Assembly (NCBI RefSeq): GCF_988242995.1
Contig: NZ_OZ547043.1
Length of the DNA: 64,000 nt
Reading direction: 5' to 3' (one strand)
Positions 61,517-62,569 of the stretch are shown piece by piece. The position numbers were made by a program, and so were the translations under genes. Numbering within the stretch: position 1 is the stretch's first letter; each line of letters begins with the position of its first letter. The notes below the pieces were generated by a model that was not told the origin of the DNA, did no database searches, and worked only from the letters and a program-made list of their open reading frames with translations.

Positions 61517-62569
61517 TCATATTCTCGCCAAAACACTTTTTAATGCCTTTGCGAATTCATCCAGACTTATATTGTCAATTTTTTGCCCAACGACGACTGA
61601 CTCCGAAACATCGGCCATTGCGGGCCATCGCGTTTTGTAATCAGCATAAATTGCAACAACGGGAGTATTATAGGCACTTGCCATATGTAATATTGAGGTG
61701 TCAGGAGTTATTGCGATATAAGCATCTTTTATGATTGCTGCTGAACGTTTAATCGAGGGTGATAAGGATAAACGGTAGACATTATTATAACAATCCACTA
61801 ATACCCTGGCTTTATCTTCCCCTTTTGGTCCATGAACGATCACTATTGGTATATCTGTTTCACTTTGAATTTTTGCTATTAGATTTTCTGCAATCGATAA
61901 TGAAAATGTACGTTCCTGCGAGCTACCTTCTAAATTGAACGCAATGTAAGATCCTAACGATCGCATTTCCTCGCGCACCTCATCGAGTACATCCTCACTT
62001 AGTGGCAATTCATATATTGGCCTGACTGCTGGAAAACCCGCCTCACGCATCATAAATGCCCATGTCATAGGTACGGGAGCCCGGAGTTTCTGATCCATAC
62101 GGGACGCGTTCTTGCACAAAGGGGAGTAGCAATTCATGGTTATACCAACAACCTGAAAATTCGTTTTTGCTTTCAACTGACTGATAAATAACATCGTTTT
62201 CAGGTTCTTTTTACGCATCGCCTCTATACAAAGATCCGGCGTACCGTATTGCTGTGTTATGTTCTTCGCTAAATCTTTTATTTCTTTTAATGTTGCGTGA
62301 TCCTGCATAGTCATTGTGACTAATGTTAATTTAGTCTTTTCAAGTTTAAGTGCATTAAACACTTCTAAATTAATTGTCGACGTAACAATTAAAAGATGCT
62401 TAATTTTATGCAATTCAAGCGCCCGAATAACAGGAAAGATGGCCATAGCATCGCCAATCTGGTCGGGAATATGGATAACAACAAACTCTGTTTTTTCAAT
62501 ATTAAAATTATAAGCTTTATAATCGTAGTAACTAAATGCAATACGTCTCAACAATGATGCTAAAAACAT
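61517..62569 (-). CDS. yeeL: glycosyltransferase family 9 (heptosyltransferase-like) protein, YeeL-type, apparently intact
   Basis: ORF track 61517..62632; start moved to MFLASLLRR, which has a GGGAGG RBS 12 nt upstream; uninterrupted frame. Confidence 0.7.
   Translation of the reverse strand: MFLASLLRRIAFSYYDYKAYNFNIEKTEFVVIHIPDQIGDAMAIFPVIRALELHKIKHLLIVTSTINLEVFNALKLEKTKLTLVTMTMQDHATLKEIKDLAKNITQQYGTPDLCIEAMRKKNLKTMLFISQLKAKTNFQVVGITMNCYSPLCKNASRMDQKLRAPVPMTWAFMMREAGFPAVRPIYELPLSEDVLDEVREEMRSLGSYIAFNLEGSSQERTFSLSIAENLIAKIQSETDIPIVIVHGPKGEDKARVLVDCYNNVYRLSLSPSIKRSAAIIKDAYIAITPDTSILHMASAYNTPVVAIYADYKTRWPAMADVSESVVVGQKIDNISLDEFAKALKSVLARI

Follow-up and report, generated by a model that had tools for sequence, protein, structure and literature searches.

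Next to the remnant of an adhesin gene, the stretch of DNA analyzed here (64,000 nucleotides of contig NZ_OZ547043.1; hereafter the window) carries an uninterrupted copy of yeeL, a gene for a glycosyltransferase of family GT9. This arrangement raises the questions of whether the intact frame is noteworthy and whether the enzyme glycosylates its neighbor, as a first-pass annotation of the sequence had suggested by proposing a glycosylation pairing between a heptosyltransferase-like enzyme and an inverse autotransporter adhesin.

The yeeL coding sequence occupies 61517..62569 on the minus strand (350 codons plus a stop) and begins with an ATG at 62569-62567. The ribosome-binding region (62576..62586, minus strand), read directly from the sequence, contains GAGG at −10 to −7 of the ATG (62576-62579) and GGGAGG at −17 to −12 (62581-62586). 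RefSeq lists the identical protein as WP_000477907.1 (“glycosyltransferase family 9 protein”), and the RefSeq annotation of the gene is the 1053-nt form. The probability that 350 codons stay open by chance at the base composition of yeeL itself (38% GC) is ~1e-11; the gene has a GC content of 38.4%, compared with 48.9% for the whole window. Frame disruptions were sought on alignment with the orthologues, with which the frame is colinear, and none were found. Thus, the uninterrupted 350-aa frame and the good ribosome-binding site reported in the first-pass annotation were both borne out, as were its coordinates, while the minus-strand location and the convergence with the adhesin remnant had gone unstated there. 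A TTG codon at 62632, 63 nt 5′ of the ATG, would add 21 codons to give a 371-aa frame; we rejected this start because all 20 of the 20 aligned orthologues begin at the ATG position.

The region upstream of the adhesin remnant bears the marks of island insertion. A tRNA-Ser gene (57545-57634) is followed by mtfA and then by the tRNA-Asn gene asnT (58626..58701, plus strand; ARAGORN), the island integration site. Beyond it lie a decayed P4-type tyrosine integrase gene (58771..59748, plus strand), which is in two frames with an incomplete catalytic domain (Pfam matches to Arm-DNA-bind_3, Phage_int_M, and part of Phage_integrase), and an IS1 element (insA/insB; 59759..60456, minus strand; Pfam DDE_Tnp_IS1, HTH_Tnp_IS1, and Zn_ribbon_InsA) that truncates yeeJ. 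To the island remnant and IS1, which form a scar at asnT (58626-60497), yeeJ has lost ~6.3 kb from its 5′ part. What is left of the adhesin gene (60498..61268, plus strand) is its last 256 codons, as expected from the earlier description of a truncated partner; this remnant encodes Ig-like/invasin domains and a C-type lectin cap, has weak Pfam matches (Invasin_D4, Intimin_C, and Invasin_D3), and corresponds to features that bear the annotation YeeJ or Ig-like domain-containing protein elsewhere, in other genomes. Between the yeeJ stop and yeeL, a terminator-like scan revealed a hairpin with a 12-bp stem followed by a T run (61275..61302, plus strand). On the other side, a 314-bp divergent intergenic region (62570..62883), presumed to hold both promoters, separates yeeL from the 5′ part of shiA (62884..64000, plus strand; Pfam MFS_1 and Sugar_tr), a shikimate MFS transporter gene that runs off the window and, judging by synteny, is the ancestral neighbor of yeeL. 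A consensus scan of this intergenic region for a yeeL promoter-like site found none that was convincing. The stretch from 58500 to 62750 is matched over at least 80% of its length in one place in only 5 complete genomes, and it is fully covered, IS1 included, in one genome only (HCP17S3_I4).

The first-pass annotation described the gene as a split pseudogene in K-12. The K-12 (BW25113) yeeL lies at the same locus and aligns colinearly with the window copy over an equal length (97.9% nucleotide identity, 22 nucleotide differences); RefSeq flags it as a pseudogene (“internal stop”). Its sole disruption is Q235* (CAA>TAA), at which the window has CAA, and seven further amino acid substitutions distinguish the two. 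The K-12 gene is therefore a pseudogene, as described there, but it is neither physically split nor frameshifted, the lesion being a single nonsense codon, so that yeeL could be restored in K-12 by the repair of one codon. An intact yeeJ lies alongside the K-12 pseudogene, whereas the window has lost most of yeeJ. The K-12 yeeL locus has been used as a neutral integration site.

A 1.35-kb yeeL region is present in 5280 of 5426 complete E. coli genomes, 4921 of which hold at least 80% of it, and the annotation throughout is “glycosyltransferase family 9 protein.” The exact protein, WP_000477907.1, is found on 587 contigs, and its 90%-identity cluster comprises 10,923 distinct members. To count alleles, we searched with 55-nt queries centered on the variable base (position 28), which any 28-nt megablast seed is thus bound to cover. 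The sense allele of codon 235 occurs in at least 4148 complete E. coli genomes and the stop allele in at least 771, which comprise K-12 derivatives, BL21, and many wild isolates, with clinical, poultry, and swine isolates among the carriers; the K-12 nonsense allele (L002:10115-11167) is no laboratory artifact. In a spread sample of 18 (17 genomes and the window), yeeL is intact in 14. A second, independent stop is found at codon 60 in DSM 103246 (L021:9618-10670), and in several genomes an IS1 insertion has broken yeeL into two annotated parts. About three quarters of E. coli genomes have an intact yeeL; intactness is the majority state of the species, to which the K-12 and B strains are exceptions, and both K-12 and BL21 are atypical at this locus. 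With these allele counts, the intactness singled out in the first-pass annotation loses its interest; the gene is already annotated in thousands of genomes, its pseudogene status in K-12 is well known, and yeeL carries little weight as a discovery. A common 346-aa variant of E. coli YeeL (P0028, with many entries) lacks VLDE (residues 204-207 of the window protein), a deletion in a surface helix that is apparently tolerated.

Outside E. coli, orthologues with 52-73% identity are found in other Escherichia species, Pseudocitrobacter, Hafnia, Pantoea, Erwinia, and Rosenbergiella. The gene order amn-shiA|yeeL|mtfA of Pseudocitrobacter is the E. coli arrangement without yeeJ, and in Escherichia sp. 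MOD1-EC7003 (93% identity) yeeL directly faces mtfA. Since yeeL and mtfA are adjacent in these relatives without yeeJ, the latter is a later insertion at tRNA-Asn, between mtfA and a preexisting yeeL; asnT is a known hot spot of island insertion (PMC5595812). Throughout Enterobacterales, yeeL stands alone, with changing neighbors and no glycan-pathway partners. We considered a recurrent MFS transporter neighbor as a functional clue: an MFS gene lies directly upstream of yeeL in Erwinia and Rosenbergiella, and shiA is divergent from it in E. coli. However, the three transporters are mutually unrelated (BLASTP E of 0.1 or worse), and their recurrence near yeeL was therefore set down to coincidence.

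YeeL matches PF01075 with 31.1 bits (gathering cutoff, 22; E=1.9e-7) over residues 178-321, in the C-terminal half only, and its orthologues and distant relatives also pass this profile. Its scores are far below the cutoffs of the heptosyltransferase families TIGR02193 (HepI; 38.2 vs 185.3), TIGR02195 (HepII; 19.5 vs 134.6), and TIGR02201 (HepIII; 17 vs 170.2), and those for the NCBIfam equivalogs RfaQ, RfaC, and RfaF are 12-15 against cutoffs of 437-569; orthology to any of the LPS core heptosyltransferases is thereby excluded. Searched against PDB sequences, YeeL had marginal matches only (WaaF, E=1.6 in a single-sequence/profile search; WaaC profile, E=0.06 and an hhalign probability of 47%, over the C-terminal half only), so that a fold comparison was needed to place the protein. 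A confident AlphaFold model of the monomer, built on 21 orthologues, has two Rossmann-like domains (pLDDT 82, pTM 0.81) in a GT-B fold nearest to solved GT9 structures, and it is closer to the LPS-type enzymes WaaC and WaaF than to TibC. The closest known systems, WaaC (HepI), WaaF (HepII), WaaQ, and the uncharacterized GT9 protein 3TOV of Veillonella parvula, share only 13-15% identity with YeeL, and its gene, unlike those of the LPS heptosyltransferases, lies outside the waa cluster.

Residue correspondences were derived by profile-profile alignment (hhalign) with a WaaC sequence checked against PDB 2GT1, and the roles of the WaaC residues were taken from bioRxiv 10.1101/2021.06.16.448588. 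T187/T188, K192, D261-T262-G263, and H266 of WaaC align with G215/S216, R220, D290-T291-S292, and H295 of YeeL, all of which are invariant in 21 orthologues. The ribose-binding E222 of WaaC aligns with G250, which is not conserved, and the adjacent E251 varies among orthologues; either the alignment may be shifted here or the nucleotide of the donor may differ, and YeeL may therefore use a donor other than ADP-heptose. The profile alignment stops short of the N-terminal domain. There, the motif I38-G39-D40-x5-P46 directly follows the strand 29-34 with the spacing of M11-G12-D13-x5-P19 in WaaC, and G39, D40, and P46 are invariant in the 21 orthologues, so that motif and secondary-structure position point to D40 as the probable counterpart of WaaC D13. 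With the frame intact, the profile match above threshold, the fold, and the motifs present, the GT9 assignment of the first-pass annotation stands.

It is from such comparisons that we infer the donor, the catalytic roles, and the acceptor class of YeeL. The C-terminal Rossmann domain would bind a nucleotide-sugar donor, most plausibly ADP-heptose, through putative contacts of R220, G215-S216, and D290-T291-S292...H295, while D40 would act as the general base that activates the acceptor hydroxyl for inverting transfer. Residues 140-163 are strongly conserved (C147, S156, D159-Q160, R163, P165-V166, and an adjoining PMTW) and form the one long region of very low AlphaFold confidence (pLDDT 31-35). 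This segment, specific to the YeeL family in comparison with WaaC, WaaF, WaaQ, and 3TOV, is a candidate for a subfamily-specific acceptor-binding or membrane-contact loop.

An exhaustive profile search yielded a small set of full-length YeeL relatives before the signal faded into general GT9 proteins. These distant relatives score E values of 1e-33 to 1e-81 against the orthologue profile, and every informative one sits with glycan-assembly genes: P0121 is flanked by GT1, GT2, a second GT9 gene, two Wzy_C genes, WecG, and Bac_transf; P0124 is flanked by Wzy_C, Bac_transf, WecG, GT4, and a flippase; and P0128 lies directly downstream of a GT8 gene. In P0149 (777 aa), unusually, a YeeL-like GT9 domain is fused to a membrane domain of the O-antigen ligase type (Wzy_C), an architecture that may inform the acceptor class of the family. 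Together with the WaaC/WaaF-like fold, this context, extrapolated from distant relatives, would favor a glycan of the lipid-linked or LPS type over a protein as the acceptor of YeeL. To our knowledge, published E. coli core structures contain no unassigned heptose. It is conceivable, though we think it unlikely, that YeeL is a fourth, conditionally used heptosyltransferase of E. coli whose acceptor is neither the canonical LPS inner core nor YeeJ; if so, its target might for instance be a protein of the cell surface or a minor glycolipid, and the absence of the enzyme from K-12 and B strains would explain why its activity was never noticed.

The window probably carries an ordinary, functional allele of yeeL, a chromosomal gene that stands alone and encodes a cytoplasmic GT9 enzyme with the GT-B fold. 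On this reading, yeeL likely came to lie beside yeeJ by accident, through island insertion, with no functional pairing, and the gene, dispensable and repeatedly lost, is otherwise under purifying selection. In the competing reading, which is in our judgment very improbable and already largely refuted, YeeL would be an enzyme dedicated to YeeJ that adds heptose to the cytoplasmic passenger ahead of its export, in the way that Aah modifies AIDA-I and TibC modifies TibA. YeeL does share with these enzymes, the bacterial autotransporter heptosyltransferases (BAHTs), a GT-B catalytic core with an Asp general base, predicted in the case of YeeL, but it lacks their N-terminal beta-barrel domain and beta-hairpin thumb (AlphaFold monomer). 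The aah-aidA and tibC-tibA genes are co-oriented, with the transferase gene upstream, unlike yeeJ (plus strand) and yeeL (minus strand), which converge across a gap of ~250 bp that has a strong hairpin at its yeeJ end, so that no shared transcript is possible. No precedent other than the BAHTs exists for the pairing of a heptosyltransferase with a type V adhesin, and these enzymes carry an iron finger of four conserved Cys in a C-lobe insertion (C339, C342, C358, and C370 of TibC) (PMC4358343). YeeL has Cys only at 114, 147, 152, and 260, with none beyond 260, and thus no four-Cys iron finger. (C114/C147/C152 as a metal-binding analogue of the TibC finger was rejected because C152 is not conserved in the next-closest relatives P0121/P0122 and the positions differ from the TibC insertion.) The passengers differ as well: BAHTs recognize beta-helix passengers (PMC4358343), while that of YeeJ consists of Ig-like domains with a lectin cap (PMC6714894) and has no beta-helix.

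The distribution of the two genes argues the same way. All four combinations occur among the 18 genomes: both intact in 3, only yeeJ in 2, only yeeL in 11, and neither in 2. A broken yeeJ with an intact yeeL is thus the commonest state (11/18) and accounts for 11 of the 14 intact yeeL genes, and the co-occurrence check called for in the first-pass annotation shows the intactness of the two genes to be uncoupled. The lineage with the yersiniabactin island (HPI) at asnT keeps an intact yeeL beside a ~3-kb dead yeeJ stub throughout. A complete yeeJ is present in only 35-40% of genomes in published surveys (PMC6714894; PMC5595812). When expressed in MG1655, YeeJ is detected at its expected size of 246 kDa, is surface-exposed, and promotes biofilm (PMC5595812), and the yeeL of MG1655 carries the Q235* stop, so that YeeJ is active there without a functional YeeL. 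A tblastn search for YeeJ-like sequence within up to 10 kb of 26 yeeL loci outside E. coli gave none (0/26), nor was an adhesin-sized ORF with adhesin domains found beside yeeL in these loci. A literature search for a functional study of yeeL found none, and no mention of yeeL or of glycosylation was found in the YeeJ papers. The proposed heptosyltransferase-adhesin pairing can therefore be set aside.

A reading less implausible than a link to YeeJ, yet still quite doubtful, is that YeeL O-glycosylates proteins whose genes are not linked to yeeL, for instance flagellin, Ag43, or proteins of the outer membrane. Such a role could account for heptosylation in E. coli strains without Aah or TibC and would suit an orphan GT9 enzyme with no pathway partners in Enterobacterales, and the Wzy_C-family proteins encoded next to its distant relatives could in principle be O-oligosaccharyltransferases; however, the fold is nearer that of LPS-type GT9 enzymes than that of TibC, the BAHT modules are absent, and the corresponding glycoproteomics paper mentions neither yeeL nor yeeJ. 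Somewhat less unlikely, and still improbable, is that yeeL is a decaying relic that no longer has a function, its frame in the window having simply escaped a hit so far. The recurrent, independent inactivations described above (the Q235* stop, the codon-60 stop, and the IS1 splits) and the low GC content of the gene would fit decay, and repeated inactivation makes its function conditional at best. One allele pair points in the same direction, that of E21 (L028:9615-10667) with the Nissle-type allele (L012:10115-11167), which differs by 9 nonsynonymous changes and 1 synonymous change (dN/dS ~2.5); this excess may reflect relaxed selection or the sequencing quality of the E21 assembly. In all other allele pairs, dN/dS is 0.13-0.56, and between phylogroups it is 0.13-0.25, including lineage pairs that both lack a working yeeJ, which also speaks against the pairing. 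Decay is also at odds with more than 100 alignment columns that are invariant across genera, down to 52% identity, with the full-length orthologues in Erwinia, Rosenbergiella, Pantoea, Hafnia, and Pseudocitrobacter, and with the prevalence of intact copies in E. coli. YeeL is best regarded as a conserved orphan GT9 enzyme.

Several minor observations were made at yeeL loci. In the E21 assembly, yeeN also has an internal stop. Downstream of yeeL in Escherichia whittamii (L033:8945-16950) lie a gene for an OLD-family AAA/TOPRIM nuclease and a pair of large ORFs, of 819 aa and >1112 aa, that match nothing in Pfam, a stretch that looks like a defense-island insertion. HipA_C kinase toxin genes are found near YeeL-family genes in two unrelated loci, one from Rosenbergiella (L004:12895-14199) and one on a metagenomic contig (L029:3510-5176), probably by coincidence. 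The contig JARKOR010000252.1 (L031), from a metagenome-assembled genome labeled Candidatus Nanosynbacter, carries amn-shiA-yeeL-yeeJ, with yeeL, shiA, and amn 98-99.8% identical to those of E. coli and YeeJ ~87% identical; the contig is almost certainly an E. coli contaminant that was binned with a Saccharibacteria genome.
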